Assembly: GCA_002430735.1 (NCBI GenBank)
Contig: DJCV01000017.1
Coordinates: forward strand, 17,238-81,237
DNA: 64,000 bases
Direction: 5' to 3'
Source of the DNA: Candidatus Woesebacteria bacterium UBA5941
GTDB lineage: Bacteria; Patescibacteriota; Microgenomatia; UBA8517
Shown one piece after another: positions 37,123 through 52,710 of the stretch. Every line of letters starts with the position of its first letter. The stretch's first letter is position 1. The notes beneath the pieces were generated by a model. The model was not told the origin of the DNA, ran no database searches, and worked only from the letters and a program-made list of their open reading frames with translations. Made by a program: the position numbers and the translations under genes.

Positions 37123-39435
37123 TTACGGATTAGGAGTAGCCGTTTGGAATGATCTAAAATTTACTGGATATCCAATAACTACTTTGCCCATTGGGAATGC
37201 ACAATCTAAACAAATATTCGTTCCTAACGGATCAGTGATGACTAAATGATTTTCCATTTGAGTATTCTCTGGGAGGATATCGTTTGGCGCATAGGTGTTT
37301 GAAAGCCGATCAAATGGAAGATCCATGCGTTGTGCACCATTCGCTGGTACTGTGCCATCAGTATAAAACTCATAACGCTGCGGACACCCATTGCTTGCAT
37401 CATTTGGCAAAAATCCAGTGTTTGCACAAATCATAGTTCCAGTAACGTTATCTGGTTGCACCGGCCATGCAGCACCTTTGTCAGTCGGGTAGTATGCACC
37501 AGCTGCCGCTTTATCAAGCACTTTCTTCATAATCGCATTCCAAATTGGAGAAGCACCCGACACTCCTGATACTCCGCCACTCATTGGCGAATTGTCATTA
37601 TTTCCAACCCATACGATCCCGACAGCATGTGGTGTGTACCCATCTGTCCAGTTGTCTCGTCTGTCATTTGTTGTTCCTGTTTTAACTGATACCTCAGGAT
37701 GTCCCGCAACATTGAGGAATGATGAAGGTCCAAATGCCGCTGTTCTTGCATTATTATCTTGCAACGCATGACTAATCAGAAAAGTAACATCAGGCTCTAA
37801 TATTCGAGGACCGCTGAGTGGATCGACTTTGTGTTCGTACAAGACTTTACCGTTCCAGTCTTCAACCTTTTGTATACCGAAAAGGTTTTGCTTAATTCCA
37901 CCGTTTGCAAAGACACCATATGCCGTGGCCATATCAAAGATAGTAACTTCGCCGCCACCTAATGTGAGTGACAAACCATAATTTTTTGGGTCTTGAAGCG
38001 TCGTGAGTCCCAAGTCGCGAGCAAATGTCACGAAATTTTCCAGCCCGTTGAGGGCGAGGACTCTGACGGCTGGGATATTATATGAATTGCCGAGGGCAAA
38101 CCTCACTTGTGATGCGCCATGGAACGTTCCATCGTAGTTGACCGGGCAATATGATTCTTGTCCGACCACTTGGAAACAGGTTGGAATATCAGCAAGAGCA
38201 GTAGAGAGGGTTATTTTCTTATCTCGCAATGCGAGTGCGTAGTTAAATGGCTTAATAGATGAACCTGGTTGTCTCTTTGCAAAAATAATATTCACTTTTC
38301 CATCTTCATCTGTTGCAAAGTAGTCTTTTGAACCAACCATTGAGAGAATTTCTCCTGTTTTTGGATAGGTTACGAGTGCTGCACCGTTTCCAACCTGTTG
38401 CTTCGTGAGTTTTGCAACTTCTTTAGCGACAGCAGCCTCAGCAGTCGCCTGCAACTCAAGGTCGAGTGTTGTGGTTACCCGTAAACCACCTTTTTCAACG
38501 ACACTATCCCCAAACATGTCAGCAAGCTGCTCCTTAATCCAAAGAGAGAAGTGTGGAGCCACAAGGGGACTTGGTTTCGCATACGCAATGTCTGCCTCGT
38601 AGGCTTCTGTTGCTTGCTCTTGAGTGATGTATTTATCTTCGACCATTCGACTCAACACCAATTGCTGGCGCTCTTTTGCAAGCTCAGGTTTTGCACCAAA
38701 TGGAGAGAAACGAGTCGGCGATGCAGTGAGTCCAGCAAGCAGTGACGCTTCTGACAGATTTAGTTGAGCAACCGATTTTCCGAAATAGAGCTGAGAAGCT
38801 GCTTCTACACCGTAGGCTGTTGACCCATATGGAATTTGATTTAAATAAAGCTCTAGGATTTGATCTTTTGAGTATCTGACCTCCACAAGCGTCGCTAAAA
38901 TGAATTCGCGAATTTTACGTTTCAATGTTCGTTCAGGTGTGAGGAGTGCGCTTTTAACGAGCTGTTGGGTTAATGTTGACCCTCCTTCTAGTTGCCCTTG
39001 GAAAACGGTTTTATAGGCTGCGCGCACCATTCCTGGGATAGAGAATCCGCTGTGCTTGTAAAAATCTTTGTCTTCAACTGAAATGGTTGCTTGTTTTACA
39101 ACATCAGGAATTTCATTTAGTTTGACGGGAGTTCTTCGTTCGCTTGCATAGATCTCATAAATCACTGAACCGTTCCGGTCAAGAAGTTTTGTTGAAACCG
39201 CTTGGTTTTGTGAAAGATTGTCGGGGAGTGGAAGCCCCCAGAGTACCCATGCTCCAAGGAGCGCAATACCACTAAAAAAGAGTGCTGCCATGATCATGAG
39301 TGCCTTTTTACTAACCCGCAACCGTTTTAAGAGAGTTTGTTTCACTCGACGATTCTGTGCTGCTTCTTTTTCTACAACGACTTCAGGGTGGGTTGCTCGG
39401 ATACGACGTTTTAGCTTTCTTTTTTTACTTGGCAT
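37123..39435 (-). CDS. class A penicillin-binding protein, second paralogue
   Basis: ATISVEDKDFYKHSGFS, GGSTLTQQLVKS, SSIKP, KTGT. Confidence 0.9.
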   Translation of the reverse strand: MPSKKRKLKRRIRATHPEVVVEKEAAQNRRVKQTLLKRLRVSKKALMIMAALFFSGIALLGAWVLWGLPLPDNLSQNQAVSTKLLDRNGSVIYEIYASERRTPVKLNEIPDVVKQATISVEDKDFYKHSGFSIPGMVRAAYKTVFQGQLEGGSTLTQQLVKSALLTPERTLKRKIREFILATLVEVRYSKDQILELYLNQIPYGSTAYGVEAASQLYFGKSVAQLNLSEASLLAGLTASPTRFSPFGAKPELAKERQQLVLSRMVEDKYITQEQATEAYEADIAYAKPSPLVAPHFSLWIKEQLADMFGDSVVEKGGLRVTTTLDLELQATAEAAVAKEVAKLTKQQVGNGAALVTYPKTGEILSMVGSKDYFATDEDGKVNIIFAKRQPGSSIKPFNYALALRDKKITLSTALADIPTCFQVVGQESYCPVNYDGTFHGASQVRFALGNSYNIPAVRVLALNGLENFVTFARDLGLTTLQDPKNYGLSLTLGGGEVTIFDMATAYGVFANGGIKQNLFGIQKVEDWNGKVLYEHKVDPLSGPRILEPDVTFLISHALQDNNARTAAFGPSSFLNVAGHPEVSVKTGTTNDRRDNWTDGYTPHAVGIVWVGNNDNSPMSGGVSGVSGASPIWNAIMKKVLDKAAAGAYYPTDKGAAWPVQPDNVTGTMICANTGFLPNDASNGCPQRYEFYTDGTVPANGAQRMDLPFDRLSNTYAPNDILPENTQMENHLVITDPLGTNICLDCAFPMGKVVIGYPVNFRSFQTATPNP

Positions 39436-39461
39436 ACATCATATTATACTGGATTTTTGCT

Positions 39462-39959
39462 GTGTTACACTGGTTTGTGATTGATCTAACAACAAAACAG
39501 TGGTGGGATTACCTCGACCACGATCTTCAAGAATTATTGTTGCAAGCGTTTGACCTCCTGCGCGTTTCATCGACGCTTGATAGTTATCGCGATTACTCGT
39601 TTATTGTATTCCCGGCAAGTAAGGCATATGAAGGATTTCTAAAGAAGATTTTCTTAGACATGGGCTTTATTACTCGTGAAGATTACGATGGCACTCGATT
39701 TCGTATTGGAAAAGCATTAAATCCAAGCCTTGAGCGCGAGGCTCGAAACGGTCAGTGGGTATACGAGAAACTAGAGCACTATTGCAATGGAAAAGACTTA
39801 CCAGATCTTTTATGGACGACATGGAAAGAGTGTCGAAATGCTGTTTTTCATTGGTTTCCAAAAGATGCACGAGCATTAACGCGTGATGAGGCAGGAGAAC
39901 GGTTGAATCGTGTTATTTATGCAATAGACTCTGTCTTTAGGGAGTGTAAAATAAAATGA
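39462..39959 (+). CDS. putative HEPN-motif protein (R-x4-H near C-terminus); start uncertain
   Basis: ECRNAVFHW = RNxxxH HEPN-type motif; all-alpha character; track start GTG 39357 lies inside the PBP gene on the opposite strand, GTG 39462 used here. Confidence 0.4.
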   Translation: MLHWFVIDLTTKQWWDYLDHDLQELLLQAFDLLRVSSTLDSYRDYSFIVFPASKAYEGFLKKIFLDMGFITREDYDGTRFRIGKALNPSLEREARNGQWVYEKLEHYCNGKDLPDLLWTTWKECRNAVFHWFPKDARALTRDEAGERLNRVIYAIDSVFRECKIK

Positions 39960-41404: not shown

Positions 41405-41854
41405 ATGAAATGTCCGTTTTGCGGGAAGGTAGAAAGCGAGGTCTTAGAAAGTCGGGTTGTTGAAGAAGGAAACGGCATCCGCAGACGAAGATCTTGTTTG
41501 AAATGCAAAAAACGATTCTCAACACTTGAGCGGGTTAAGGAATCGACGATTTGGGTAGTAAAGAGTGACGGCAGACGCGAGCAATTTAGTCGAGAGAAAA
41601 TTAGAAAAGGTATTTTGAGAGCAGTTGAGAAACGATCCGTGCCATTGAGTTTAGTTGATGATATTGTAGGACGTGTTGAGAAAGATATTGCGAGAAAACA
41701 ATTACAGGAAGTTTCATCACACACGATTGGAAGGACTGTATTGAAGTATTTACAGAAAACAGATAAAGTGGCCTGGTTGCGATTCGCAAGTGTGTATTTT
41801 CAGTTTGAAGATTTGGCTGACTTTGAAAAACTTATAGAAAAGATGAATCCATGA
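41405..41854 (+). CDS. nrdR: transcriptional repressor NrdR
   Basis: MKCPFCG...RRRRSCLKCKKRFSTLE zinc ribbon plus ATP-cone. Confidence 0.95.
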   Translation: MKCPFCGKVESEVLESRVVEEGNGIRRRRSCLKCKKRFSTLERVKESTIWVVKSDGRREQFSREKIRKGILRAVEKRSVPLSLVDDIVGRVEKDIARKQLQEVSSHTIGRTVLKYLQKTDKVAWLRFASVYFQFEDLADFEKLIEKMNP

Positions 41855-44412
41855 AAGTACCAAAGAAAACATCACAAAAGTACGGAAAAGACAAAAGTAA
41901 AAGCGGTGAATTTAAAGACCTTCGAAAAAGCGCACTCTTTCATATCTCAGAGAGTGAGATCCCCACAAAAACCCAACTAGATGGACTTCGAGAAACTGTA
42001 TTTATGGATCGCTATTCATTGAAAGACAGCGACGGAGCATCCCTTGAAAAGTATCCAGAACAAATGTGGCTTCGTGTCGCAAAGGGCATTGCTCAGTTTG
42101 AAGAGGAATCAAAGCGAAAAGAGTGGGAGCAGAAGTTCTACGGAATTATGAGTGACTTCAAGTTTGTTCCGGGAGGCAGAATTTTATCTGGAGCTGGAAC
42201 TGGATATGAAGTCACATTCTTCAACTGTTATGTTATCCCATCTCCATCCGATAGCCGTGGGGGAATCATGGAAAACATTACACAGACTGTCGAAATTCAA
42301 TCCCGTGCGGGAGGAGTTGGTGTTAATTTAAGTTCCCTCAGACCTCGTGGTGCACGTGTTCGAAAGGTAAATGGTACTTCAAGTGGACCGGTCAACTGGG
42401 CGTCCCTGTATTCAACTGCAAATCATGATGTGATCCAACAAGGCGGAAGCCGTCGTGGAGCGCTCATGCTTATGTTGAACGATTGGCATCCGGATGTGAA
42501 AGAATTTATTAAGGTAAAGGAAGACTTAACTAAAATTCCTGGTGCCAATTTGTCAGTCTGTGTATCTGATGAATTTATGGATGCCGTTAAAAACGATAGC
42601 GATTGGGATTTAGTATTTCCAGATTTTGCAAACGATGATCGATATGATGAGCTTTGGAATGGAGATATTGATAAATGGAAAGAAAACGGTGGAAAAGTCG
42701 TTGTGTATGAAACCGTTAAAGCTCGAAAGCTTTGGGACATGATTGCTGAAGCGGCATGGAAGAGTGCAGAGCCTGGACTTCACTTTATTGGTCGTAGTAA
42801 CAAACGGAGTAACACTTGGTATTTTGAAAAATTAATTGCAACAAACCCCTGCGGAGAACAACCACTCGGAGCATGGGCAGTGTGTAATTTGGGCGCAATG
42901 AACCTTGTGGCATATGTCGATGGAAACGGTGAGTTTAACTTCGACCAATTAGCATCTGATGTGCAAATTGCGATGCGCTTTATGGATAACGTCTGTGATG
43001 CAAACTTCTATTTCTATCCAGAAACATATGAAATGCAAATGGACATCCGTCGAACCGGGCTTGGGACAATGGGCTTAGGTGACGCGTTGATTAAAATGAA
43101 GATTGCATATGGATCTGATAAGTCAGTCGAGGTAATTGAAAAAATTTATAAGACCATTCGAGATAATGCATATTTAGCAAGCAGTGAGATTGCTGGGGAA
43201 AAGGGAAGCTTTAGAAAATTTGAAAGCGATAAATACTTAAACGGATATTTTATTAAAAAACTCCCTAAGTATATCCGTGAAAACATTGCTAAAAAAGGAA
43301 TCCGAAATGCGGTACTTTTGACGCAAGCTCCAACTGGTACAACATCACTCTTGTCTGGGGTAAGTTCAGGAATTGAGCCTGTGTATAACTTTGAATTTAA
43401 GCGAAAAGATAGAACTGGAGAACATATGGTGTATCATCCGCTTTTTGAAGAATGGAAGAAAGCACATCCAGATAGTGAGAAACCTGATTATTTTGTTTGT
43501 GCTATGGACTTGTCGCCTGAAGAGCATCTGAAAGTACAAGCAAAAATCCAAGAATATACTGATTCTTCAATTTCAAAAACGGTAAACGCACCAAACGAAT
43601 ACACCGTTGAGGATGTAAAACGGTTATATACAAAAGCATATGAAATGGGATGCAAAGGTATTACGTTCTTTAGAGATGGGTCTCGTGCAGGAGTGCTCGA
43701 GAATGTGAAGGAAGAGAAAAAAGAAGAGAAAGCAAAAGAAGAAAAAGCTGCAGTTGCACAAGGGGACTATTTAATTGAACGACCATTTATGGTGAAAGGC
43801 GCAACATACAAGATGCAGACTCCGTCTGGAAAAGCATTCATAACAATTAATGAAGACGGTGAAGGAGAACCTCTTGAGGTGTTCATAAACGTCGGAAATG
43901 CTGGGAGTGATATCGCCGCATTTGCGGAAGCATTAGGTCGCATGATCTCTGCAACGCTTCGAATGCGAGGTTCAATTTCTGCAAAGAAACGAGCGCTTGA
44001 AATTAGCGAACAATTGTCGGGTATTGGCGGAAGACGGTCTGTGGGCTTTGGTGCGAATAGAATAATGTCTCTTCCAGATGCAATTGGAATTGCACTAGCC
44101 ACTCATTATGGATTTAGACAAAATTTAAATCTCCCCACATCAAACGGGGTACATATGACGAATGGTAATGGTCATTCAAATGGATTAACGAATGGTCACA
44201 CGACAAACGACGAAGTTAAGCAAACATTATTCGCTGCAGGCACAGCTGAGTCGACGAGTGTTACTTCAAGCGGGATGATGCTGCAGGTACAAGCTGAACT
44301 GCCCCTTACAGGGAAACAAAAAACAGATTTGTGTCCAGAATGTGGCAGCCATTCACTTGTCATGGAGGAGGGCTGTGCAAAATGCTACACCTGCGGACAC
44401 AGCGAGTGTTAA
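41851..44412 (+). CDS. nrdJ: class II (adenosylcobalamin-dependent) ribonucleotide reductase
   Basis: NPCGEQPL active-site motif, 853 aa, C-terminal CPECG...CAKCYTCGHSEC zinc ribbon; start overlaps the nrdR stop (ATGA). Confidence 0.9.
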   Translation: MKVPKKTSQKYGKDKSKSGEFKDLRKSALFHISESEIPTKTQLDGLRETVFMDRYSLKDSDGASLEKYPEQMWLRVAKGIAQFEEESKRKEWEQKFYGIMSDFKFVPGGRILSGAGTGYEVTFFNCYVIPSPSDSRGGIMENITQTVEIQSRAGGVGVNLSSLRPRGARVRKVNGTSSGPVNWASLYSTANHDVIQQGGSRRGALMLMLNDWHPDVKEFIKVKEDLTKIPGANLSVCVSDEFMDAVKNDSDWDLVFPDFANDDRYDELWNGDIDKWKENGGKVVVYETVKARKLWDMIAEAAWKSAEPGLHFIGRSNKRSNTWYFEKLIATNPCGEQPLGAWAVCNLGAMNLVAYVDGNGEFNFDQLASDVQIAMRFMDNVCDANFYFYPETYEMQMDIRRTGLGTMGLGDALIKMKIAYGSDKSVEVIEKIYKTIRDNAYLASSEIAGEKGSFRKFESDKYLNGYFIKKLPKYIRENIAKKGIRNAVLLTQAPTGTTSLLSGVSSGIEPVYNFEFKRKDRTGEHMVYHPLFEEWKKAHPDSEKPDYFVCAMDLSPEEHLKVQAKIQEYTDSSISKTVNAPNEYTVEDVKRLYTKAYEMGCKGITFFRDGSRAGVLENVKEEKKEEKAKEEKAAVAQGDYLIERPFMVKGATYKMQTPSGKAFITINEDGEGEPLEVFINVGNAGSDIAAFAEALGRMISATLRMRGSISAKKRALEISEQLSGIGGRRSVGFGANRIMSLPDAIGIALATHYGFRQNLNLPTSNGVHMTNGNGHSNGLTNGHTTNDEVKQTLFAAGTAESTSVTSSGMMLQVQAELPLTGKQKTDLCPECGSHSLVMEEGCAKCYTCGHSEC

Positions 44413-44415
44413 TTC

Positions 44416-44961
44416 ATGGCCGTTTATACCAGGAAAGGTGATACCGGAACTACTTCAATGTATGAGGCAGACCCAAAAAAGCGCTGTCGTGTGTCAAAGT
44501 CAGATCTTCGAGTACAAGCAATTGGTGCCGTTGATGAAGTGAATAGTTACCTTGGCATTTGTAATTTTTATGTACAGTCTTCAAACACAAAAAAGTTTGT
44601 AACAGACATTCAACGAAATTTGTTTACTATTGGATCAATTCTTTCAAAAGCTCCATTAGAAATAAAGAAAGCTGAAACAAAAAAACTTGAAGGAGAAATT
44701 GATCGTATTGAAGAATCACTTCCACCACTCAGAAACTTTTTACTTCCAGAAGGGAGTATCTCTGCTGTACATTTTATGTATGCGCGTGCACTCGCCCGGC
44801 GCGCTGAGCGAAGAGTGGTAGCTCTGCACAATAAAGAAGCGGTGGATAGTGGGGTCCTTGAATATATAAATAGACTCTCTGATTATTTGTTTTGTATATT
44901 TCGTGAGGAGAACGCGTTAAGTGGGGAAAAGGAAGAGCTCTGGATTGGGAGAAAGTCTTAA
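44416..44961 (+). CDS. pduO: ATP:cob(I)alamin adenosyltransferase, PduO type
   Basis: MAVYTRKGDTGTTSM N-terminal signature; 181 aa. Confidence 0.85.
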   Translation: MAVYTRKGDTGTTSMYEADPKKRCRVSKSDLRVQAIGAVDEVNSYLGICNFYVQSSNTKKFVTDIQRNLFTIGSILSKAPLEIKKAETKKLEGEIDRIEESLPPLRNFLLPEGSISAVHFMYARALARRAERRVVALHNKEAVDSGVLEYINRLSDYLFCIFREENALSGEKEELWIGRKS

Positions 44962-46256
44962 AACAGAAACGCCGCAAACAGTTGTGCTGCGATATTTAAA
45001 ATCACATTTGGCTCAGTTATCTCAAGCGTTTCAGTAGGTTTTTTAGCTCGTTTTCTTTCAGCAATCTTTTTGATATCTTCAAGTGATTTACCTGATTGAA
45101 ATGCGCGATCACACGTTTTACAAATCATACAAAGTCCAAGAGCTTGCTCAGATCCCGCTTTCTCACTAATGCATGCCTTTAGCGATTCCATTGCGCAAAT
45201 TCCAGTATTAGGAAATTCTTCCTCTCCTTCAATAAGACGAGCACCGAATGGTGTTTCAACATACGTTCCGCCACCTCCATTACATCCACCATCTTCTTGA
45301 AATGCTTCGTATGCAGCAGTGTACTCAGCTGCGGTTTGTGGAGTCCTGCCGATAACTGAAAGTGATTTCATATCAAGTACTGTTCGGCCCATCTCGTACA
45401 GTAGGGTTGCCATTGAAGCATCGCTGTTGTCACGAATATTTTGTCGAGTGAATTCTGAAAACTGTTGGATGCGATTTTTAATATGAGCTTCTATTTCCGG
45501 ATAGCGGTTAAGACACATGCGCATATGTGCCATCGACTCACCAGTCACACTTTCAATCGCATCTACGACATCGTGTGAGGTGACACTTGTTTCGATGAGG
45601 GCACTGGTAAGTGCAGTGATTCTCTCTATTTCGCCTCTATTTCTATTCAGCGTGTTCCCATTTAAAACTTCGTGTAAGTCCTCGCTTCCATCAAGGGACA
45701 TTTTTGAAACAAAGGTCATACTTTCAATAGCACCACCGCGATTGCGATAGAAATATACTTGTGCCTCGGGGTAGCTTATTCCGTTATATCCTGACCATCC
45801 TGGTGGACTAATTAACACAAAACTATCATTGTGCTTTGAACATAAGAGTTTCTCTTCAAGTTCTTGAATGGATTTATATATCGTTCCATTTCGCTCTTCA
45901 GGAGAAACCGTATTGATAAGTGGTTGGTTTCCATACTTTGGGCAAACAACACGACCGTTTTCCATGGTAATTGGGAATGGAAGAACCGGAAGTCTTCGGT
46001 AGTATTCATCGTGCAGTCCACGCAGGTCTTGTTCGTTTTTCTCAACAACACTTTCAATCCATTCAGACGGTGTTTCATAGTCACCGTATGAAGAACGGAT
46101 CATTTCTATCTGACCGTGGATATCAAAACCGGTTCCTTTTAATTGCACGACATGAGCATCAATACGAGGAGAGGGAGTGGTTTCTGTACGTTCAATAAGC
46201 ATAGTCCTGCACGGGAAATCTTGATTGTTAGTTTTCCGACTATACGGTTGCGGCAC
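44958..46256 (-). CDS. hypothetical 432-aa protein, no recognisable family; Cys-rich C-terminal segment and hydrophobic tail
   Basis: GTG start; GGCNGGGG...GICAMESLKACISEKAG...CMICKTCDRAF; ends VILNIAAQLFAAFLF. Confidence 0.5.
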   Translation of the reverse strand: MPQPYSRKTNNQDFPCRTMLIERTETTPSPRIDAHVVQLKGTGFDIHGQIEMIRSSYGDYETPSEWIESVVEKNEQDLRGLHDEYYRRLPVLPFPITMENGRVVCPKYGNQPLINTVSPEERNGTIYKSIQELEEKLLCSKHNDSFVLISPPGWSGYNGISYPEAQVYFYRNRGGAIESMTFVSKMSLDGSEDLHEVLNGNTLNRNRGEIERITALTSALIETSVTSHDVVDAIESVTGESMAHMRMCLNRYPEIEAHIKNRIQQFSEFTRQNIRDNSDASMATLLYEMGRTVLDMKSLSVIGRTPQTAAEYTAAYEAFQEDGGCNGGGGTYVETPFGARLIEGEEEFPNTGICAMESLKACISEKAGSEQALGLCMICKTCDRAFQSGKSLEDIKKIAERKRAKKPTETLEITEPNVILNIAAQLFAAFLF

Positions 46257-46311
46257 AGCTCAGGAGTTACACCTGATTCCTTAAACACAATCTCTAAAAC
46301 AATGTACAAGA

Positions 46312-46337
46312 AAAGGCGCCGTTTGAATAGCGCCTTT
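46312..46337 (-). terminator. rho-independent terminator (AAAGGCGC-10nt loop-GCGCCTTT), palindromic so possibly bidirectional
   Basis: 8-bp stem flanked by an A-run and a T-run, 9 nt beyond the end of gene 46346..46906. Confidence 0.55.
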
Positions 46338-46345
46338 TATTACAG

Positions 46346-46906
46346 TTACTCCTGTCGCAAATGTACTGCGAAATCGCTTCCGCTGACTAATGCCGATGCT
46401 GGCCGTTTATGGCCGCTATATGACATCATTATTTTTTGATAGCCAGCGATCATCTTGTATTCGAACGGGTTGTCAGTTTTATCCTCGTCCTGTTGATACA
46501 TCGAGAACTGAACTTCAGCCCACACAATTGCCAGTTTTGGCGCTTGTAGACCCAAAAACAGCGGATGTTCTTCGATAAACTGGGAATGGTCGTATTTTCG
46601 TAGTCGCAATTCAACGCTGAATAGCAGCGCACTTGCGATAAAGATCTTCCCTTTGTCATCGACGAGTACTGATCCACAGTGTTCACTGGGATTGCTCACG
46701 ATTAGTGGAGCAATATCGTGGTCGTTAAGCATCATTCGCCCACAAAACAGAGTTCCCTCAATGAATCCGTTTGCGAGAAATTCAGCGCTCCACAAAGGTT
46801 GTTGGAAATACGAGTCTACATGAGTGATTTCAAACCCGCCGGGGAACGTCGTCCGCGGCACGTTGAACTGATATGGCTTTCCCAATAGAATCGATGGTAC
46901 AGGCAT
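46346..46906 (-). CDS. hypothetical protein
   Basis: ATG at 46904-46906 preceded by a GGAGGTG RBS (reverse strand); track start GTG 46972. Confidence 0.5.
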   Translation of the reverse strand: MPVPSILLGKPYQFNVPRTTFPGGFEITHVDSYFQQPLWSAEFLANGFIEGTLFCGRMMLNDHDIAPLIVSNPSEHCGSVLVDDKGKIFIASALLFSVELRLRKYDHSQFIEEHPLFLGLQAPKLAIVWAEVQFSMYQQDEDKTDNPFEYKMIAGYQKIMMSYSGHKRPASALVSGSDFAVHLRQE

Positions 46907-46987
46907 TACACACCTCCTAAATTGTAAGCGATACCCTATATTATCACTTCCATTGCTGTATGTCACGGTCACATATACAATGAAACC

Positions 46988-47347
46988 ATGAGTACCCCCG
47001 AAATTATTTCAGAACAGCCAGTGCAACCAGAAATGACCCCACGGGTTGAACAACCGATTGTTCCAGAGACGGCACAGCAGTTGGGAGTTACAGCACCACC
47101 ACAAGCACCTAAGCCAATTGCAGCACCTGATAACCCAGTTGTGGTGCAGCCTGTTTCAATTACACCGCTCCCGGATGAAACCCCATCGCTTACTGTTCCA
47201 ACCAATATTGCATTAAGTGAAAAAGAGCTTGAGAAAGGGGCGACTGGACCATCGAATTTGGCTGTCACCTGGCTTGATATGTATTGGCTGAGAGAAGTAG
47301 GCCGCGCGTTTAGCAAGGGTTGGAAAGTCATTTTTGGAGCAAAATAA
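46988..47347 (+). CDS. Pro-rich hypothetical protein with amphipathic C-terminus
   Basis: ATG start; ends 7 nt before the ATPase gene. Confidence 0.45.
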   Translation: MSTPEIISEQPVQPEMTPRVEQPIVPETAQQLGVTAPPQAPKPIAAPDNPVVVQPVSITPLPDETPSLTVPTNIALSEKELEKGATGPSNLAVTWLDMYWLREVGRAFSKGWKVIFGAK

Positions 47348-47353
47348 AACAGA

Positions 47354-49717
47354 ATGAAATCCCCACTGCCACTCTCAAATCCAGAAGCTGTAATAGGCTT
47401 TGATTTCGCGACTATTTTTTTGGCACTGTTTCTCTTTGCATTCGTCTTCTTATCCGTTGTAATCGGGATTTGGATCTGGACCCATTTTTATCGATACAGA
47501 GATCGAGAAAAACGCTCGCTTGATTCAGTTCTGTTGCAAGTGGCTGTCTCACGGGGGAATGAAGTCAAAATTGATGCAATGGAACAGCTGTTTGCGTCAC
47601 TGCATGCGATTAAAAAAGGTGGATGGAAACAACGATTTTCTACACAGCCTCAAATCTCATTTGAGATAATTGCAAAGCCAGAAGAAATTCGCTTTTATGT
47701 GTGGACCTATAAAAGCTTGCAGGATCTTGTTGAAAAACAAATACACGGTGCATATCCTGATGCCGAGATCGTTGAAGTTCCTGAACACAATATTTTTACT
47801 CAGGATGGAAAAGTTGCATACAAGTCATTTCAGCTCAAGAAAGATAGTTTCTACCCAATAAAAACGTTTAAAGAATTGCCCACTGATCCACTTGCATCAC
47901 TTACTTCAGCTCTTGCAAAAATGGGACCAGGAGAAGGAGCCGCTATTCAAATTCTAGTGTCTCCACAAGACAACGATTGGAAGTCTGGTGGAAGAGGATT
48001 TATTGCTGAAACAAAAAAACAAGAAAGTAATCCCGAAAAGGCGAAGTATTCAGTCCCAGCCAAAACCTTGGAAGCCGTTGAAAATAAAATATCAAAACCT
48101 GGGTTTGATATCTCAATTCGAGTTGTTGTGGTTTCACCGACAGAAGAAGGTGCAAGTGGGCACTTAAGTAATATTTCTACTGCATTTTCTCAGTTTGATG
48201 GTGAATATAACGGATTTGGAAGCCGAAAAATCCGGCGAAAAACAGCATTTGTGGAGGATTTTGTCTACCGATATCACCCAATGTTTGAAGTATTTGGAAA
48301 TCACAAATCCATTTTAAGTTCAGAAGAACTTGCCACCATTTTCCATTTCCCAAATAAACTCATCACCACTCCGCATATCTTATGGCTCACCGCCAAGTCA
48401 GCACCTGCACCTGCACAAATTCCTACTGAAGGGCTCTATCTTGGCATGAGTAATTATCGAGGGGTGAAGCGACCAGTGTACATGGGGGAGGCCGACCGTC
48501 TACGACACACCTACATTATTGGAAAGACAGGAACAGGTAAGTCAAAGTTTTTGCTTGAGCTTATGAAGCAAGATATCAAAAACGGAAAAGGACTCTGTTT
48601 TATGGATCCTCATGGTGATGCAGTTGAAGAGTTGCTTGAATACATTCCACCCGAACGCGCAGAGGATGTTATTTACTTCAGGCCATCTGATGTGGATCGG
48701 CCCATGGGATTAAATCTTTTGGAAGCAAAAACTGAAGATCAGAAACATTTTGTAACTACTTCTGTCATTAACTTAATGTATAAGCTCTTTGATCCTTACA
48801 AGACCGGTATTGTTGGACCACGATTTGAACATGCGGTGAGAAATGCAATGTTGACGGTTATGAGTGAACCTGGAAACACATTCATTGAAGTCATGAGAAT
48901 TTTGACTGATTCAAATTACGTTAAAGAAATGCTTCCAAAAGTACAAGATCCGATTGTGAGGCGGTATTGGACAGATCAAATTGCACAAACTTCAGATTTT
49001 CATAAATCAGAAACCCTAGACTATATCACGTCAAAATTTGGACGATTTGTGACGAATAAAATGATTCGAAATTTAATCGGTCAATCACAAAGTTCGTTTG
49101 ATTTTAGAAAGATCATGGATGAAGGGAAAATTCTTCTTGTGAACCTCTCAAAAGGGGAATTGGGAGAAGAAAACTCAAGTTTTTTGGGACTTATTTTAGT
49201 TCCTCGAATCTTGATGGCTGCCATGAGTCGTGCGGACATTCCCGAGGAACAACGCCGCGACTTTTTCTTGTACGTTGACGAGTTTCAAAACTTCGCGACT
49301 CCCGACTTCTCACAGATCTTGTCTGAGGCTCGTAAGTATAAACTTTCTCTTACAGTAGCGAACCAGTTCGTGGGACAAATCGATGAAGAAATCAAAAACG
49401 CAATCTTTGGAAACGTAGGAACTATCATGAGTTACCGAGTGGGGGTCAGTGACGCCAATTATTTAGCACGAGAATTTGCACCAGTATTTAATGAGGATGA
49501 TTTATTGAATATTGAACGCTATCACGTCTATATTCGAACCCTGGTGAATAATGAGCCAGTTCCGCCATTTTCAATGGATTTGACTCGTGATTTAAAGCAA
49601 TCAGGGAACACGAAGAGCGCAGAAGTTGCAAAGCTTATTAAGGACATGAGTCGTATTAAGTACGGCCGTGACTTACGCCTCGTTGAGACAGAGATTGCCA
49701 GAAGATCACGCTTGTAG
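47354..49717 (+). CDS. membrane-anchored FtsK/HerA-superfamily P-loop ATPase (DUF87/HerA-like; TraD/VirD4 coupling-protein-like architecture)
   Basis: N-terminal TM; Walker A YIIGKTGTGKSKF; KILLVNLSKGELGEENSSFLGLILVPRI then FLYVDEFQNFA (Walker B), as in HerA/TraG-like ATPases. Confidence 0.65.
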   Translation: MKSPLPLSNPEAVIGFDFATIFLALFLFAFVFLSVVIGIWIWTHFYRYRDREKRSLDSVLLQVAVSRGNEVKIDAMEQLFASLHAIKKGGWKQRFSTQPQISFEIIAKPEEIRFYVWTYKSLQDLVEKQIHGAYPDAEIVEVPEHNIFTQDGKVAYKSFQLKKDSFYPIKTFKELPTDPLASLTSALAKMGPGEGAAIQILVSPQDNDWKSGGRGFIAETKKQESNPEKAKYSVPAKTLEAVENKISKPGFDISIRVVVVSPTEEGASGHLSNISTAFSQFDGEYNGFGSRKIRRKTAFVEDFVYRYHPMFEVFGNHKSILSSEELATIFHFPNKLITTPHILWLTAKSAPAPAQIPTEGLYLGMSNYRGVKRPVYMGEADRLRHTYIIGKTGTGKSKFLLELMKQDIKNGKGLCFMDPHGDAVEELLEYIPPERAEDVIYFRPSDVDRPMGLNLLEAKTEDQKHFVTTSVINLMYKLFDPYKTGIVGPRFEHAVRNAMLTVMSEPGNTFIEVMRILTDSNYVKEMLPKVQDPIVRRYWTDQIAQTSDFHKSETLDYITSKFGRFVTNKMIRNLIGQSQSSFDFRKIMDEGKILLVNLSKGELGEENSSFLGLILVPRILMAAMSRADIPEEQRRDFFLYVDEFQNFATPDFSQILSEARKYKLSLTVANQFVGQIDEEIKNAIFGNVGTIMSYRVGVSDANYLAREFAPVFNEDDLLNIERYHVYIRTLVNNEPVPPFSMDLTRDLKQSGNTKSAEVAKLIKDMSRIKYGRDLRLVETEIARRSRL

Positions 49718-49769
49718 CCTTCATTTGATATACTATAGCCCTCAGTATTCTATCCTAAAAGGAGGGAGT

Positions 49770-50126
49770 ATGTTTGAAGTACCAATCCGCAGTGGGCCTG
49801 AAGGATACCAGTTTACCTTTTTAGTCGGGAACGGTTTTTTGGAGATTCTAAACCAAGATTTTCCCGGAAAACCATGGAGAATCCCGATTACGGAAAAGAT
49901 TCAGCGTGGCGCAAAGGTGAGCGTGTTAAGCACATCCACTTATCCGCTTCGTCTATGGTCAGATGGGGACGATCTGGTAATTTCAATAAAAGGATTGATC
50001 CCTGACGAAGAAATGTCCTGGCGTGTCGACATTGATGCATTCAACGACCATTTGTTTGAGGTCGGGATACCACAGCCTGTTGTCGATATGCGCGGAACCC
50101 GGTGGATAGATGAGGGTGAGGAATAA
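49770..50126 (+). CDS. hypothetical protein
   Basis: GGAGGG RBS then ATG 49770; track start 49668 overlaps the upstream gene. Confidence 0.5.
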   Translation: MFEVPIRSGPEGYQFTFLVGNGFLEILNQDFPGKPWRIPITEKIQRGAKVSVLSTSTYPLRLWSDGDDLVISIKGLIPDEEMSWRVDIDAFNDHLFEVGIPQPVVDMRGTRWIDEGEE

Positions 50127-50146
50127 TATCCTCATCAGTTTCAGTA

Positions 50147-50180
50147 GAGGTTGGCCGATCTGGTCAGCCTCTTTTTATTT
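50147..50180 (+). terminator. rho-independent terminator (GAGGTTGGCC-gatc-GGTCAGCCTC + TTTTTATTT)
   Basis: 10-bp stem with 2 G-U pairs read directly. Confidence 0.55.
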
Positions 50181-50196
50181 CCCTCGGTTCATGCTT

Positions 50197-50205
50197 TGCT
50201 ATAAT
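50197..50205 (+). promoter_or_regulatory. extended -10 TGCTATAAT, 12 nt upstream of the tRNA 5' end
   Basis: Same 9-mer as upstream of pyk. Confidence 0.35.
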
Positions 50206-50217
50206 ACGCATGTAATT

Positions 50218-50289
50218 GGGCCTATCGTTTAACGGTTAGGACACGATTCTTATAAAGTCGGTACGATGGTTCGACTCCATCTAGGCCCA
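50218..50289 (+). tRNA. tRNA-Ile, anticodon UAU (TAT)
   Basis: Manual fold: acceptor GGGCCTA/TAGGCCC, D-arm GTTT/GGAC with GG loop, anticodon stem CGATT/AGTCG, loop CTTATAA, T-arm GATGG-TTCGACT-CCATC, discriminator A. Confidence 0.7.
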
Positions 50290-50310
50290 CACTGGTTTTT
50301 TACTACTTAT

Positions 50311-50523
50311 ATGGAACACTTAAAATTAACGAAAGAACAAAAGATAAAACGATTAACTGAAGAAAATGAACGATTGCAGGCTCGATTAGACGGGTTATAT
50401 AAGACGTTTAGGGGTGTACGACACGAAGATAGTGCGAGCGAAATGAAATACACAACAATTAAGGTGCTTGAAGCTCATATCCATTCAATAAATGAGGAGC
50501 TAAAAAACTTAACGCAGAAATAA
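50311..50523 (+). CDS. small coiled-coil hypothetical protein (70 aa), convergent with the recombinase
   Basis: ATG 50311; track start 50266 lies inside the tRNA and is rejected. Confidence 0.4.
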   Translation: MEHLKLTKEQKIKRLTEENERLQARLDGLYKTFRGVRHEDSASEMKYTTIKVLEAHIHSINEELKNLTQK

Positions 50524-50525
50524 GA

Positions 50526-51398
50526 TTACAACTCTTCTAAGTGTTGTTTACTTCCTGAAGTCTTAATTTGAGCAAGCTCTAAATATCTTTCAGTAGTTGA
50601 AAGTCTCTTGTGACCGGAAACACGAGAAAGGAGCACGAGGTCAACTCCACGTTTTAAGTTTTCAACCATAAAGGTCGTTCGCAAATCATTTACTGAATAT
50701 TGTGGCATTTCAGCTTTTTGCAAATATCGATCGATTGCAGCTCGAATGTTTCGAACAGCAAGTGGTTTACCGTTTTTGCTTACAAATAGGTGAACTGCCT
50801 TCGGAAGTTGTGGTCGGCTTGCCATGTACATTTGAATAGCAGCAATAGCAGCTGTAGTTAATGGAACTTCACGTTGAGGCTGTGTTGCGTATGATTCAAC
50901 GATTAATCGATCCTTTTTAATGCTTTCCAGCTTCAAATTAGCTACCTCTGAAATACGGAGCCCAGCTTGTAAAATAAGTTCAACCATTGCTGAGATTCGA
51001 ACATCGCCTCGAACATAATCTCTGAGTGATCGATATTCCTTTTCAGTTAAAAACTGTGGCATGCTAGACTCAATTTTAGGGTGGCTAACATCTCGTGAAG
51101 GGTCTTTTTCAATAGATTTTTGGTCCTTCATCCATCGGAAAAAGGTTTTAATGGCGTTTAACTTTCGGGAAGTTGATTTAGCCGTGTATTTTTGAGCAAG
51201 CAAAAAATCTCGAAAATTTTCGAGATCTACGCTGCGTACTTCACTCGCCAAAGTCTTATTTCGCTCATATAAAAAGCTCAATAATTGATCAATATCTGAT
51301 CGGTAGGCTAATACGGTCGAAGGAGATCGGCCTTTTTCTGTAAGACTCTGAATGAATTCTGGTACGTAGTCTGCGAGCTGTTTGTTAGTGTCTGTCAT
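50526..51398 (-). CDS. tyrosine recombinase, XerC/XerD-like
   Basis: N-terminal SAM-like domain; catalytic R (GLRISEV), HxxR (GHKRLSTTERYL) with Tyr; 290 aa. Confidence 0.8.
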   Translation of the reverse strand: MTDTNKQLADYVPEFIQSLTEKGRSPSTVLAYRSDIDQLLSFLYERNKTLASEVRSVDLENFRDFLLAQKYTAKSTSRKLNAIKTFFRWMKDQKSIEKDPSRDVSHPKIESSMPQFLTEKEYRSLRDYVRGDVRISAMVELILQAGLRISEVANLKLESIKKDRLIVESYATQPQREVPLTTAAIAAIQMYMASRPQLPKAVHLFVSKNGKPLAVRNIRAAIDRYLQKAEMPQYSVNDLRTTFMVENLKRGVDLVLLSRVSGHKRLSTTERYLELAQIKTSGSKQHLEEL

Positions 51399-51425
51399 AC
51401 GATCAAGTAAGTATAATAAACTACC

Positions 51426-51456
51426 AATGGCCCAATGTCAAATATTATGGGCCAAG
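51426..51456. other. dif-like imperfect palindrome (TGGCCCAAT-gtcaaat-ATTATGGGCCA) in the recombinase/ftsB-like intergenic region
   Basis: 7-bp perfect inverted repeat TGGCCCA/TGGGCCA at 51428-51434 and 51448-51454, ~27-bp site 28 nt from the recombinase start. Confidence 0.3.
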
Positions 51457-51497: not shown

Positions 51498-51866
51498 ATG
51501 AGGAATAAACAAATCCAGCGTACCGCGTATGTCATATTCCTATTGTTTCTTTGTTATTCGTTGATAGGAAATTTCAGACTCCTGTTAAAGGCGAGGAATA
51601 GCTTGAGCGAAGCACAGGCTATTCTGGAGAAGGAGACAGAGGAGAATCGGAAATTGCATGATAAGCTCGTTGAGGCTGGGAAGTTTACCTATGCTGAACG
51701 TGTCGCGCGAGATACCCTCGGACTCGCGCGCGAGAATGAAGTTGTATTCATTTTACCCCCTGAAGAATCGTTAAAAGAGTTATCTCCACGAAAAGCAGAA
51801 CGCGACAAAAAACCGGTACTTCAGGTCGTTTCCCCGTGGGAAGAGTGGCTAAAATTGTTTCTCTAG
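51498..51866 (+). CDS. septum formation initiator FtsB/DivIC-like protein
   Basis: N-terminal TM, coiled coil, C-terminal ERVARDTLGLARENEVVF motif. Confidence 0.6.
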   Translation: MRNKQIQRTAYVIFLLFLCYSLIGNFRLLLKARNSLSEAQAILEKETEENRKLHDKLVEAGKFTYAERVARDTLGLARENEVVFILPPEESLKELSPRKAERDKKPVLQVVSPWEEWLKLFL

Positions 51867-52145: not shown

Positions 52146-52206
52146 CCCACAAAAAAACCGCCACTATGTGACGGCTTTTCGCTTTAATGGGTAGAGTGTT
52201 CCTCTT

Positions 52207-52710
52207 TTATAATTCCAGATTGCTCCGGGCTTTGGTGTACTTGAACTCAACTACTTTCACGCGGCCCAATGTCACGGCATTTAAAGCGACTGTTATGTTT
52301 GTCAACGTGGCTTTGTCTGGCTGCAAGCCGTGCAATTGCTCCATCGTGTGGTGTCGGATTTCGTGGATTAACACGCTTTCCAAGAACACGCTGATTTGTT
52401 GCACCTGTGCAGTTGTAATGCCCGCGCTCAGTACCAGACTGTACGACAATTCCGCGAGTATTCCATCTGTTGTCCTATCCCAGAGAGAGTCAACCCACCG
52501 TTTGTTCGGCGTACGCACCCGAATAACTTTGTATTCAATGATGCTATACGGCAAGGTTTCAAATGCCAGCCAGGTAATGAGCAAAGCGCAAACTACAATG
52601 GTTGCGGGCTGGACTGCAATTGCTAAGAATACCAAGATGAAAGGCGATAGTATTGCAGCCGCAAAAAGGATGGTAATACCGATAACAATCTGACGAGCTA
52701 CTGCGGTCAT
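52207..52710 (-). CDS. membrane-anchored HExxH-motif protein (putative zinc metallopeptidase)
   Basis: ATG preceded by a GGAGG RBS; two N-terminal TM; SVLIHEIRHHTMEQLH. Confidence 0.5.
   Translation of the reverse strand: MTAVARQIVIGITILFAAAILSPFILVFLAIAVQPATIVVCALLITWLAFETLPYSIIEYKVIRVRTPNKRWVDSLWDRTTDGILAELSYSLVLSAGITTAQVQQISVFLESVLIHEIRHHTMEQLHGLQPDKATLTNITVALNAVTLGRVKVVEFKYTKARSNLEL

Follow-up and report, generated by a model that had tools for sequence, protein, structure and literature searches.

A chromosomal region of a Woesebacteria genome with a cobalamin-riboswitch-controlled gene, a coupling-protein-like ATPase operon and a conserved tRNA-Ile/xer neighbourhood

The region at positions 44,958 to 51,398 of a 64,000-nucleotide stretch of the genome of Candidatus Woesebacteria bacterium UBA5941 (contig DJCV01000017.1; the whole stretch is called the window below) lies between an nrdR-nrdJ-pduO operon and a divIC/ftsB-like gene. 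A preliminary description regarded it as a possible integrated or decayed mobile element, in which five orphan open reading frames (ORFs) and a membrane-anchored ATPase form one module. Our results indicate that the region is very probably a piece of the vertically inherited Woesebacteria chromosome, in whose gaps lineage-specific genes accumulate. It comprises three functionally separate units: a vitamin B12 unit with the gene of a 414-aa protein (o414) behind a riboswitch for adenosylcobalamin (AdoCbl), an operon in which the ATPase gene is flanked by two small ORFs of 119 and 118 codons (o119 and o118), and a housekeeping group of tRNA-Ile(UAU), a gene for a Xer-like tyrosine recombinase (xer) and divIC. 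All coordinates are window positions (Table 1), and L001 to L096 are labels of related loci fetched for comparison. The ORFs, the tRNA gene and the recombinase were all found where they had been described (ORF list, ARAGORN, family scans). Over 18,202 shared bases the window is 100% identical to the JGI metagenome contig Ga0119928_1000002 (942 kb), whose gene calls agree with the earlier ORF list.

A tRNA gene, a tyrosine recombinase and an ATPase resembling type IV coupling proteins (T4CPs) are together the textbook signature of an integrative element. For the comparison with relatives, one genome per GTDB species was scanned; 349 species had an ATPase relative, and 80 loci were fetched (84 overall, 81 of them non-redundant after removal of duplicates). 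The gene pduO was located upstream of the ATPase gene in 78 of the 81 non-redundant loci, xer was found downstream of it on the opposite strand in 71 (46-86% identity), and divIC was present in the frame in 64. The tRNA-Ile(UAU) gene lay between the ATPase gene and xer in 81 of the 84 fetched loci. Most absences of an anchor gene are caused by contig ends, L046 being a clear exception for xer. The frame kept among related Woesebacteria/Microgenomates is pduO - small ORF - ATPase - tRNA-Ile(UAU) - xer (minus strand) - divIC. The wider order is kept, too, with PBP-PBP-HEPN-Rce1-DUF5667-nrdR-nrdJ-pduO on the one side and xer-divIC-trpS-tRNA_bind-ftsH-exonuclease-glycosyltransferase on the other. 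ATPase, tRNA-Ile and xer are among the most conserved genes of the region; only o414, an ORF of 186 codons (o186), o118 and a coiled-coil-like ORF of 70 codons (cc70) vary. Across 81 species, median identity amounts to 71% for the ATPase, 70% for FtsH, 63% for Xer, 62% for NrdR, 57% for TrpS, 45% for PduO, 38% for NrdJ and 32% for DivIC. The framework of the block is thus not absent from other genomes, its ATPase/tRNA-Ile/xer order being kept in 71-81 species.

No att repeat was detected in the 64-kb window: the 20-nt and 30-nt 3' ends of the tRNA-Ile gene, with up to 3 mismatches allowed, matched only themselves. The sole weak repeat of the tRNA end (19 of 25 nt at 41,243) is part of a conserved gene and is similar to further pairs that arise by chance. 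The GC content across 44-52 kb is 0.40-0.45, the same as in the rest of the window, and the synonymous-codon scores of o414, o119, the ATPase gene, cc70 and xer fall within the housekeeping range. Mild deviations in codon usage were seen only for o186 and o118, and also for the conserved divIC. The five small or orphan ORFs had been described as lacking a recognisable family, and they indeed gave no match in Pfam, NCBIfam, PHROGs or PADLOC. Further gene-content scans covered 20 ORFs at 1,429-39,959 (Pfam) and the called genes at 38-56 kb (with precomputed Pfam marks). Genes for a relaxase, VirB4 or phage functions, which the preliminary description had likewise reported as absent from the block, and genes for a type IV secretion system (T4SS) were found neither among the block proteins nor among these 20 ORFs and called genes; what the scans returned was metabolic and housekeeping (glycolysis, pentose-phosphate, cell-wall and transport genes). 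Relaxase or T4SS linkage was absent from the scanned window ORFs and from the 81 syntenic loci alike. A search of 2.9 million viral contigs gave only 14 distant relatives of the ATPase; most of them share 24-37% identity with it over the ATPase domain, and one of the 14 is a 75%-identical fragment. The same context in 81 species, the missing att repeat, the uniform composition and an ATPase belonging to a conserved chromosomal family of the Candidate Phyla Radiation contradict the proposal of an integrated or decayed element.

The recombinase, which had been suspected to be perhaps simply the chromosomal Xer, is a chromosomal, vertically inherited Xer-like gene, found in the same place and on the same strand in 71 of the 81 species. 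Its catalytic residues R, R, H and Y are kept. Box II differs from HxLRH in 71 of 71 species and reads exactly NDLRTT in 56, and all NCBIfam scores stay below the equivalog cut-offs (XerC 158.9 bits, cut-off 335; XerD 151.5, cut-off 330; XerA, cut-off 220). The xer promoter lies in a divergent promoter region common with divIC, and its -35/-10 pattern recurs in most of about 63 related xer-divIC spacers. An inverted repeat TGGCCCA...TGGGCCA in this spacer was considered as the dif site and rejected, since a comparison of 64 spacers showed it not to be conserved; the conserved part of the spacer consists of the divergent sigma-70 promoters. The tRNA-Ile(UAU) gene is no integration site but a fixed landmark of the synteny. 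Homologues of cc70 were found in 14 of the 84 loci, from 12 distinct genomes, and mostly adjoin xer; in Pfam, cc70 gave only sub-threshold coiled-coil matches.

Several observations weigh against a purely vertical history. The gaps between the anchor genes differ in length, indicating that DNA is gained and lost at this locus: from pduO to the ATPase gene the median is 445 bp, with more than 1 kb in 16 of 79 loci, from the ATPase gene to the tRNA 813 bp (more than 1 kb in 22 of 79) and from the tRNA to xer 471 bp (more than 1 kb in 11 of 72). Raised GC3 values (0.50 for o186, compared with about 0.34 for its neighbours, and 0.48 for o118) together with essentially no homologues make small recent insertions possible for these two ORFs; o186 had a homologue in none of the 84 related loci. 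A dif site for Xer was not found in the comparison of xer-divIC spacers. Finally, plasmids and Bacillus phages encode relatives that match the ATPase over its full length, and ultimately it is therefore of mobile origin. Taken together with the conserved order, we nevertheless hold it very probable that the adjacency of tRNA-Ile and xer to the ATPase gene is ancestral synteny and not the scar of an integration.

The largest orphan of the block belongs with nrdJ and pduO, because it is under control of a cobalamin riboswitch, and the proposed single module of five orphans and ATPase therefore falls apart. On the minus strand, the Rfam scan gave a match to the AdoCbl-II riboswitch above the gathering score of 36.5 bits (Table 1). 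The aptamer overlaps the first 18 codons of the ORF of 432 codons that had been described (44,958-46,256, from a GTG) and ends 19 nt before an ATG at 46,202. This overlap indicates that the gene starts at 46,202, which is also the start used in the public gene call of the source contig (414 aa). The ORF itself had thus been recognised correctly, whereas its start had been placed too far upstream and the riboswitch had been missed. Matches to RF01689 above the gathering threshold were obtained for L006 (41.1 bits), L041 (40.8 bits) and L001 (37.2 bits), too. In L001 and L006 the riboswitch is located upstream of genes homologous to o414, in L041 upstream of another gene.

A covariance model of our own, built from the aptamers of the window, L001, L006 and L041, was used to search 1.4 Mb of sequence from related loci. 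It matched only in the slot adjacent to pduO, in eight loci (the window, L001, L006, L041, L024, L072, L050 and L091), and always on the strand pointing towards pduO; L041 contains two copies, in tandem operons, and the match in L091 is weak. In an alignment of nine sequences, 95.1% of the cells were paired and 10 of 19 pairs showed compensatory changes. The covariation score was 0.398 compared to at most 0.133 for slid controls and was reached by none of 500 shuffles; the alignment is model-fitted, which favours the structure. Each of the ten aptamers compared is followed on its 3' side by a motif (C/U)CGAGCA(A/G)GA, at a distance of 3-8 nt from the start codon. The copy in the window, CCGUGCAGGA, holds the ribosome-binding site and ends 3 nt before the ATG at 46,202. 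Being conserved in front of unrelated genes, the motif belongs to the riboswitch, and the short segment between aptamer and start codon is probably the expression platform. The aptamer occupies the 5' leader on the same strand as the gene, an arrangement shared by all other riboswitch loci. A hairpin just after the stop codon of o186 is a probable terminator separating this ORF from the riboswitch. Read from the sequence in this way, a regulation of o414 by B12 is well supported. Most likely, the aptamer would sequester the ribosome-binding site when adenosylcobalamin is plentiful and thereby switch translation off, so that the 414-aa protein would be made when B12 is scarce. No paper linking Patescibacteria with cobalamin riboswitches was found in the literature searched.

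The 414-aa protein has about 20 homologues in 5.8 billion proteins, none of them with a Pfam domain or a name. The family alignment shows invariant ER.G, SPPGWSG and GCNGGGG motifs and a C-terminal C...CxxC cluster. A signal peptide is missing, and the window member as well as some others end in a hydrophobic tail; the protein is therefore probably located on the cytoplasmic side, tail-anchored in this species. The homologues in L001 and L006 occupy the same slot on the same strand, with family sizes of 414-480 aa. A cobalamin riboswitch precedes the gene in six of six examined members, in three genomic contexts and with three aptamer subclasses, and four of the six adjoin nrdJ-pduO. Besides the window, L001 and L006, this applies to the member in L095, which follows nrdR-nrdJ-pduO (RF01482 42.4 bits, below the gathering score; own model 38.6 bits), and to those in L096 (RF00174 31.3 bits, gathering score 31.5) and L094 (own model 38.2 bits). 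In the window the gene is transcribed towards nrdR-nrdJ-pduO. The family member P0282 in L096 (763-2,567, minus strand) adjoins genes for PrgI (VirB3-like) and a TraC-like T4SS protein; this only site at which the B12-regulated family and T4SS genes stand together is probably a coincidence.

The neighbours of o414 are B12-using genes. NrdJ was identified as an adenosylcobalamin-dependent ribonucleotide reductase (NCBIfam NrdJ_Z 579.5 bits, cut-off 400) and PduO as an ATP:cob(I)alamin adenosyltransferase (PduO_Nterm 144.9 bits, cut-off 108; Pfam Cob_adeno_trans match). The slot beside pduO holds one of three kinds of genes. The first is the family of 414-480 aa (window, L001, L006), the second a family of 281-302 aa with an SCPPGM motif and a C-terminal Cys ribbon (L041, L024, L072), and the third a DUF4430 protein together with a DUF6580 membrane protein (L041, L050; DUF4430 also in L091). 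DUF4430 is a domain found at the C-terminus of transcobalamin-family B12 binders (PMC4350170), and DUF6580 gave a weak match to the S component of energy-coupling factor (ECF) transporters. No paper on DUF6580 was found in the literature searched. A profile-profile comparison (hhalign) of the 414-aa and the 281-302-aa families resulted in a probability of 10% and an E-value of 0.003. The riboswitch-controlled genes and the neighbouring NrdJ and PduO suggest that the slot is an accessory locus induced by B12 starvation. In L091 (1,306-4,624; ATPase 61% identical) a DUF6580 gene is located directly upstream of pduO. Behind a sub-threshold AdoCbl-II match the same locus contains genes for a protein with prenyltransferase/squalene-cyclase repeats (448 aa) and for a protein ending in DUF4430 (301 aa). 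These genes are further candidates for B12 acquisition.

An AdoCbl-requiring reductase next door and a slot shared with riboswitch-controlled DUF4430 and DUF6580 genes point to a cobalamin role. By this analogy, the most likely role of the 414-aa protein is in the capture, trafficking or processing of cobalamin. It may act as an acceptor, chaperone or processing enzyme on the cytoplasmic face and pass scavenged B12 to PduO and NrdJ. Alternatively, it might be a B12-independent substitute for a B12-dependent step, or an unrelated gene that happens to stand behind a riboswitch. B12 riboswitches also repress B12-independent isozymes, known examples being metE, nrdDG and nrdAB. The protein does not resemble known B12 binders or transporters, and one family member is found among iron-homeostasis genes (VIT1, EncFtn, FUR). 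We consider this alternative unlikely, since the cobalamin riboswitch recurs at six of six members in three contexts, four of them beside nrdJ-pduO, the slot alternates with DUF4430/DUF6580 genes, and a protein of 400-530 aa with a zinc-ribbon-like end is unlike a ribonucleotide reductase. Although they are unable to synthesise B12, these bacteria rely on an AdoCbl-dependent ribonucleotide reductase for their DNA precursors, and little is known about how the vitamin is acquired and processed. A family that is defined by its riboswitch and is otherwise invisible offers a concrete candidate for this function, and the alternative B12-regulated genes that are swapped in the pduO slot are testable as well.

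The second unit is centred on the ATPase of 787 aa. It had been described as a membrane-anchored protein of the FtsK/HerA superfamily with an architecture like that of coupling proteins, and the P-loop, the anchor and a TrwB-like fold were all recovered. One long hydrophobic N-terminal helix (about aa 17-45) is followed by RYRDREKR and by an alpha/beta domain, DUF8128 (about aa 55-340; PF26449). This domain is precomputed for the identical protein of the source contig and for all 120 listed homologues; our own Pfam scan did not report it. Walker A (GKTGTGKS) spans residues 390-397 and Walker B (YVDEFQNF) residues 640-647. G390, G395, K396, D642 and E643, together with additional polar residues, do not vary among 40 diverse members, the most distant of which have 34% identity; the ATPase is thus probably catalytically active. 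In Pfam, DUF87 (26.7 bits, cut-off 23.2), TrwB_AAD_bind (21.3 bits, cut-off 20.5) and TraG-D_C, likewise just above its cut-off, were matched. The affiliation with T4CP profiles thus held in Pfam, whereas the named T4CP families of NCBIfam stayed far below their cut-offs (best matches SXT_TraD with 42 bits, cut-off 366, and conju_CD1115 with 40.9 bits, cut-off 250). The best PDB sequences were TrwB and DotL. FtsK_SpoIIIE and Ftsk_gamma gave no match at E <= 0.1; the sole match of FtsK type was the PHROG 'FtsK/SpoIIIE-like' (E 0.0025). On these sequence criteria the protein belongs to the T4CP branch of the FtsK/HerA superfamily.

AlphaFold models were made from 27 close homologues (pLDDT 66.6) and from a diverse alignment of 40 sequences (pLDDT 88.7). 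In the latter model, the long N-terminal helix is followed by the alpha/beta N-domain and by a P-loop domain, into which an all-alpha domain (about aa 460-590) is inserted between Walker A and B. Foldseek aligned TrwB over the C-terminal half with a TM-score of 0.60-0.63 normalised to TrwB. The best E-values (2e-17) were obtained for TrwK/VirB4 over about 850-890 columns, with a TM-score of about 0.3 and an rmsd of about 16 A. Neither a profile search against PDB sequences nor NCBIfam (VirB4_CagE 15.6 bits, cut-off 643) gave a VirB4 match. The modelled resemblance between the DUF8128 domain and the N-terminal domain of VirB4 is suggestive only.

More than 6,900 homologues of the ATPase were found. 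The best 120 listed share 70-84% identity with it along the full length, and their sources are named Woesebacteria or Patescibacteria. The DUF8128 N-domain alone occurs in 2,311 clusters at 50% identity, mostly in proteins with a length of about 780-1,100 aa. Beyond the phylum, relatives that cover the full length including the N-domain (22-27% identity) are found on Bacillus plasmids, on haloarchaeal and Sulfolobus plasmids and in Bacillus/Geobacillus phages. The PHROG family phrog_5156 matches residues 221-785 (E 9e-99), and a homologue from a B. subtilis plasmid aligns over residues 91-773 (26% identity, E 2e-54). The plasmid gene is located directly upstream of genes for a relaxase of the replication-relaxation family, TcpD, TcpE and a VirB4-like protein; standing beside a relaxase and Tcp-type transfer genes, this copy is by its context a working coupling protein.

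The ORF o119 has a Pro/Glu/Gln-rich N-terminal part and a C-terminal aromatic-basic helix with the consensus SKG-x6-TW(L/F)xxFWLRxIKKAxHFGW, and its stop codon is 6 nt upstream of the start of the ATPase gene. In about 75 of 80 loci the ATPase gene is preceded on the same strand by an ORF of about 100-135 aa that contains this motif and whose stop codon is only a few bases away, and analogous P/Q-rich low-complexity ORFs precede ATPases of 61% and 46% identity. The only homologue of o118 was found in L001 (30% identity, E 4e-4); this ORF is probably co-transcribed with the ATPase gene. Judged from the sequence, o119, the ATPase gene and o118 form one transcription unit that ends at the hairpin behind o118. 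In many relatives the o118 slot holds a gene of about 285 aa, which was considered as a partner of the ATPase and rejected: its sequence resembles that of an NAD-dependent sugar dehydrogenase, and it is absent in the window.

Most likely, the ATPase would form a membrane-bound hexameric ring and feed protein or DNA to a membrane channel at the expense of ATP. The most probable channel would be a relaxase-less chromosomal T4SS encoded elsewhere in Patescibacteria. The protein of o119 might serve as an adaptor or regulator, or possibly as a VirB3-like companion if DUF8128 is VirB4-N-like. In line with the relatives on Bacillus plasmids, the Patescibacteria T4SS has been concluded to stem from a monoderm conjugation machinery (PMC12102498). 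The ATPase probably descends from coupling proteins of monoderm conjugative elements, and it is now a fixed core gene. Microgenomatia with virB4 clusters exist, and the clusters are frequently close to dnaA. The T4SS cluster of Southlakia has no recognisable coupling protein (PMC10633639). A coupling of the ATPase to a T4SS is plausible, and we propose it tentatively. No paper on DUF8128 was found in the literature searched.

Alternatively, the ATPase might work without a T4SS, either as a DNA uptake motor similar to the archaeal Ced system or in the export of a dedicated substrate. In 2,918 Patescibacteria genomes 5,713 VirD4-like homologues were counted, of which only 148 lie near virB4, and an exaptation was raised (PMC12102498). 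Homologues exist in phages, which have no T4SS, the NCBIfam families CedD and CedB gave weak matches, and the conserved private partner o119 would fit. However, the matches to the Ced families are confined to the P-loop region, with scores far below the cut-offs, genes of coupling proteins are often away from virB4 in ordinary systems, too (PMC12102498), and the operon encodes no channel-forming partner. We therefore regard a T4SS-free function as rather unlikely.

It could also be that the ATPase is a membrane-bound translocase of double-stranded DNA that replaces or assists FtsK, clears the septum and activates the adjoining Xer. Membership in the FtsK/HerA superfamily, the membrane anchor, a conservation at the level of FtsH, the position next to xer and divIC in about 70 species and a conserved C-terminal tail of three helices (KYGRDxRxVExEIxRR) would be in line with such a function. 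The two genes, however, are parts of separate units on opposite strands, with a terminator, the tRNA gene and variable DNA between them. The distant DUF8128 ATPases of L085, L086, L092 and L093 have no called xer in the few kb of flank fetched, and those of L085, L086 and L093 have other chromosomal neighbours, without xer or tRNA-Ile, indicating that the adjacency of ATPase and Xer is clade-specific synteny and no functional link. Moreover, the FtsK_SpoIIIE and gamma domains are not matched, an ftsK gene is annotated in at least one Patescibacterium (TM7x), and the closest relatives by sequence are coupling proteins and not FtsK. This makes an FtsK-like role improbable.

Least probable is an integrative and conjugative or mobilizable element or a genomic island at tRNA-Ile with the ATPase as leftover transfer machinery: the three-gene signature, the relatives on conjugative-type plasmids beside a relaxase and in phages, and the variable flanking slots would suit it, but the order of the signature genes in 71-81 related species, the lack of an att repeat, of compositional deviation and of relaxase, VirB4 or phage genes among the scanned ORFs, and the recombinase's own conserved promoter beside divIC refute it for any recent event, so that only a capture before the radiation of Woesebacteria may be considered. 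The earlier hedge of a lineage-specific translocation module comes closer, the ATPase being a lineage-typical T4CP-like protein without relaxase or VirB4 genes nearby. For genome scans this calls for caution, as a tRNA gene, a tyrosine recombinase and a coupling-type ATPase can be ancestral gene order in reduced, syntenic genomes.

Combining both proposals, the 414-aa family may be a new cobalamin handler of Patescibacteria, and the DUF8128 ATPase with its partner a phylum-specific, domesticated core motor; we advance this joint interpretation as a possibility, still somewhat doubtful in its entirety. The ATPase and the Pro-rich protein, domesticated from a monoderm conjugation system, would then serve the episymbiotic lifestyle and not DNA transfer. 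Some results count against the explanations given here. Three of the six riboswitch matches lie below or only just at the Rfam gathering scores, and profile searches of the 414-aa family against Pfam and PDB gave no relative, so that neither fold nor sequence offers a clue. A T4SS gene was not found among the scanned window ORFs. A single T4CP homologue, not necessarily a member of DUF8128, was examined genetically in a Saccharibacterium and proved to be dispensable (PMC12102498).

Some further observations concern the surroundings. The tRNA-Ile at this place carries the anticodon UAU in 81 of 84 loci, and two genes of tRNA-Met(CAU) type usually follow divIC. The usual tRNA-Ile for AUA has a lysidine-modified CAU anticodon. 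The conserved tRNA-Ile(UAU) may bear on AUA decoding and on the need for TilS. Group I introns were matched in Rfam near tRNA-Met in L041 (13,006-13,210, minus strand, 67.1 bits) and L016 (14,124-14,365, minus strand, 51.9 bits; gathering score 50). In both loci one tRNA-Met was called instead of two, and they may contain an intron-interrupted tRNA-Met gene. A small ORF at 39,357-39,959 (plus strand) gave a sub-threshold match to RnaseLS-like HEPN proteins (28.9 bits, cut-off 29) and is kept in several relatives (L002, L003, L087), with the PBP genes on one side and the Rce1-like gene on the other. At 52,187-52,710, after the tRNA-Met genes, two ORFs of 168 aa (plus strand) and 167 aa (minus strand) overlap completely. 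The latter is the public gene call; it resembles a multi-pass membrane protein, has a GC3 of 0.55 and the most deviant codon usage of the region, and had no homologue in the related loci. Many related genomes (L006-L080) are deposited as 'uncultured Gammaproteobacteria bacterium' and one as Alphaproteobacteria. These titles look like placeholders or wrong taxonomy, since the genomes carry the Woesebacteria-type locus with an ATPase identity of 68-81%.

Table 1. Features of the analysed region (window positions) and alternative genes of the pduO-adjacent slot in related loci (positions in the respective locus)
Feature	Position	Strand	Evidence or remark
nrdR-nrdJ-pduO operon	41405..44961	+	NCBIfam NrdJ_Z, PduO_Nterm; Pfam Cob_adeno_trans
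414-aa protein, o414 (432-aa orphan of the preliminary description)	44958..46202	-	uncharacterised family, B12-riboswitch controlled
Probable expression platform	46203..46221	-	motif and ribosome-binding site
AdoCbl-II riboswitch aptamer	46222..46293	-	Rfam RF01689, 39.3 bits
Probable terminator: hairpin AAGGCGC / GCGCCTT, 10-nt loop, then T-rich run	46313..46336	-	read from sequence; loop longer than the 8 nt covered by the hairpin scan
o186, 186-aa ORFan (208 aa from upstream GTG, to 46972)	46346..46906	-	called gene on source contig
o119, 119-aa Pro-rich partner protein	46988..47347	+	motif kept in relatives
787-aa membrane-anchored ATPase	47354..49717	+	DUF8128 and T4CP-type P-loop
o118, 118-aa lineage-specific ORF	49770..50126	+	single homologue, L001
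Intrinsic-terminator-like hairpin, 12-bp stem and T run	50146..50172	+	sequence scan
tRNA-Ile(UAU)	50218..50290	+	ARAGORN; Rfam tRNA 57.3 bits
cc70, 70-aa coiled-coil-like ORF	50311..50523	+	between tRNA and xer 3' end
Xer-like tyrosine recombinase	50526..51398	-	Pfam Phage_integrase 89.7 bits and SAM-like N domain
xer promoter, sigma-70-type, TTGACA-17-TATTAT, 11/12 matches	51413..51441	-	
divIC/ftsB-like cell-division gene	51498..51866	+	Pfam DivIC 38.8 bits
Alternative slot genes	L041 5349-7478; L050 6092-7343; L024 6320-7316; L072 6420-7446	all -	

Compared to known systems, the B12 unit resembles AdoCbl-II (RF01689) regulons of B12 uptake genes in its above-threshold aptamer, its covarying stems and a ribosome-binding site directly 3' of the aptamer, and in sister species the riboswitch controls DUF4430 and ECF-S-like genes. 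It differs in that here and in five other cases the controlled gene belongs to a family of about 20 members without known domain. The recombinase shares with the resolvases XerC, XerD and XerA the SAM-like N-terminal and the catalytic domain, the best NCBIfam matches and a place beside a cell-division gene, whereas its scores below the equivalog cut-offs and the NDLRTT box II set it apart.

With the T4CPs (TrwB of R388, VirD4, TraD, DotL, Cag-beta) the ATPase has in common the P-loop, the inserted all-alpha domain and the N-terminal anchor. TrwB and DotL are its best PDB sequences, and TrwB is the best fold match of its C-terminal half. Canonical T4CPs possess two transmembrane helices. The ATPase, in contrast, has one, with an extra DUF8128 domain of about 290 aa between anchor and ATPase domain, and it is encoded by a fixed chromosomal core gene without relaxase or T4SS genes nearby and scores below the NCBIfam equivalog cut-offs. 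To the VirB4/TrwK proteins the ATPase (about 800 aa, with an N-terminal alpha/beta and a C-terminal ATPase domain) is linked by the best Foldseek E-values over long alignments and by a small preceding protein, as VirB3 precedes VirB4; the low TM-score, the high rmsd and the missing sequence-level PDB match speak against a closer resemblance. The two-domain architecture is kept from end to end, including N-domain motifs, in a Bacillus plasmid 'DUF87 domain-containing protein' (NZ_OX419581.1, WP_144625398.1), and it is found in the phage relatives (Bacillus phage G gp156, Geobacillus phage TP-84; phrog_5156), too. These relatives differ by their low identity to the ATPase, by the relaxase gene beside the plasmid copy and by phage copies without known role.

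Very probably, the ATPase is to be counted among the orphan VirD4-like T4CP homologues of Patescibacteria reported by Quinonero-Coronel et al. 2025 (PMC12102498), which are chromosomal, too, occur with about two copies per genome, are rarely located near virB4 and have no relaxase. So far these homologues were counted and not characterised, and the counts include neither DUF8128, nor a small partner, the extreme conservation or the pduO/tRNA-Ile/xer neighbourhood. A DUF8128 subfamily conserved like FtsH, its dedicated small partner, a possibly VirB4-like N-domain and relatives on Bacillus plasmids and in phages can now be added, and these facts narrow the experiments on a secretion-type motor in episymbionts.

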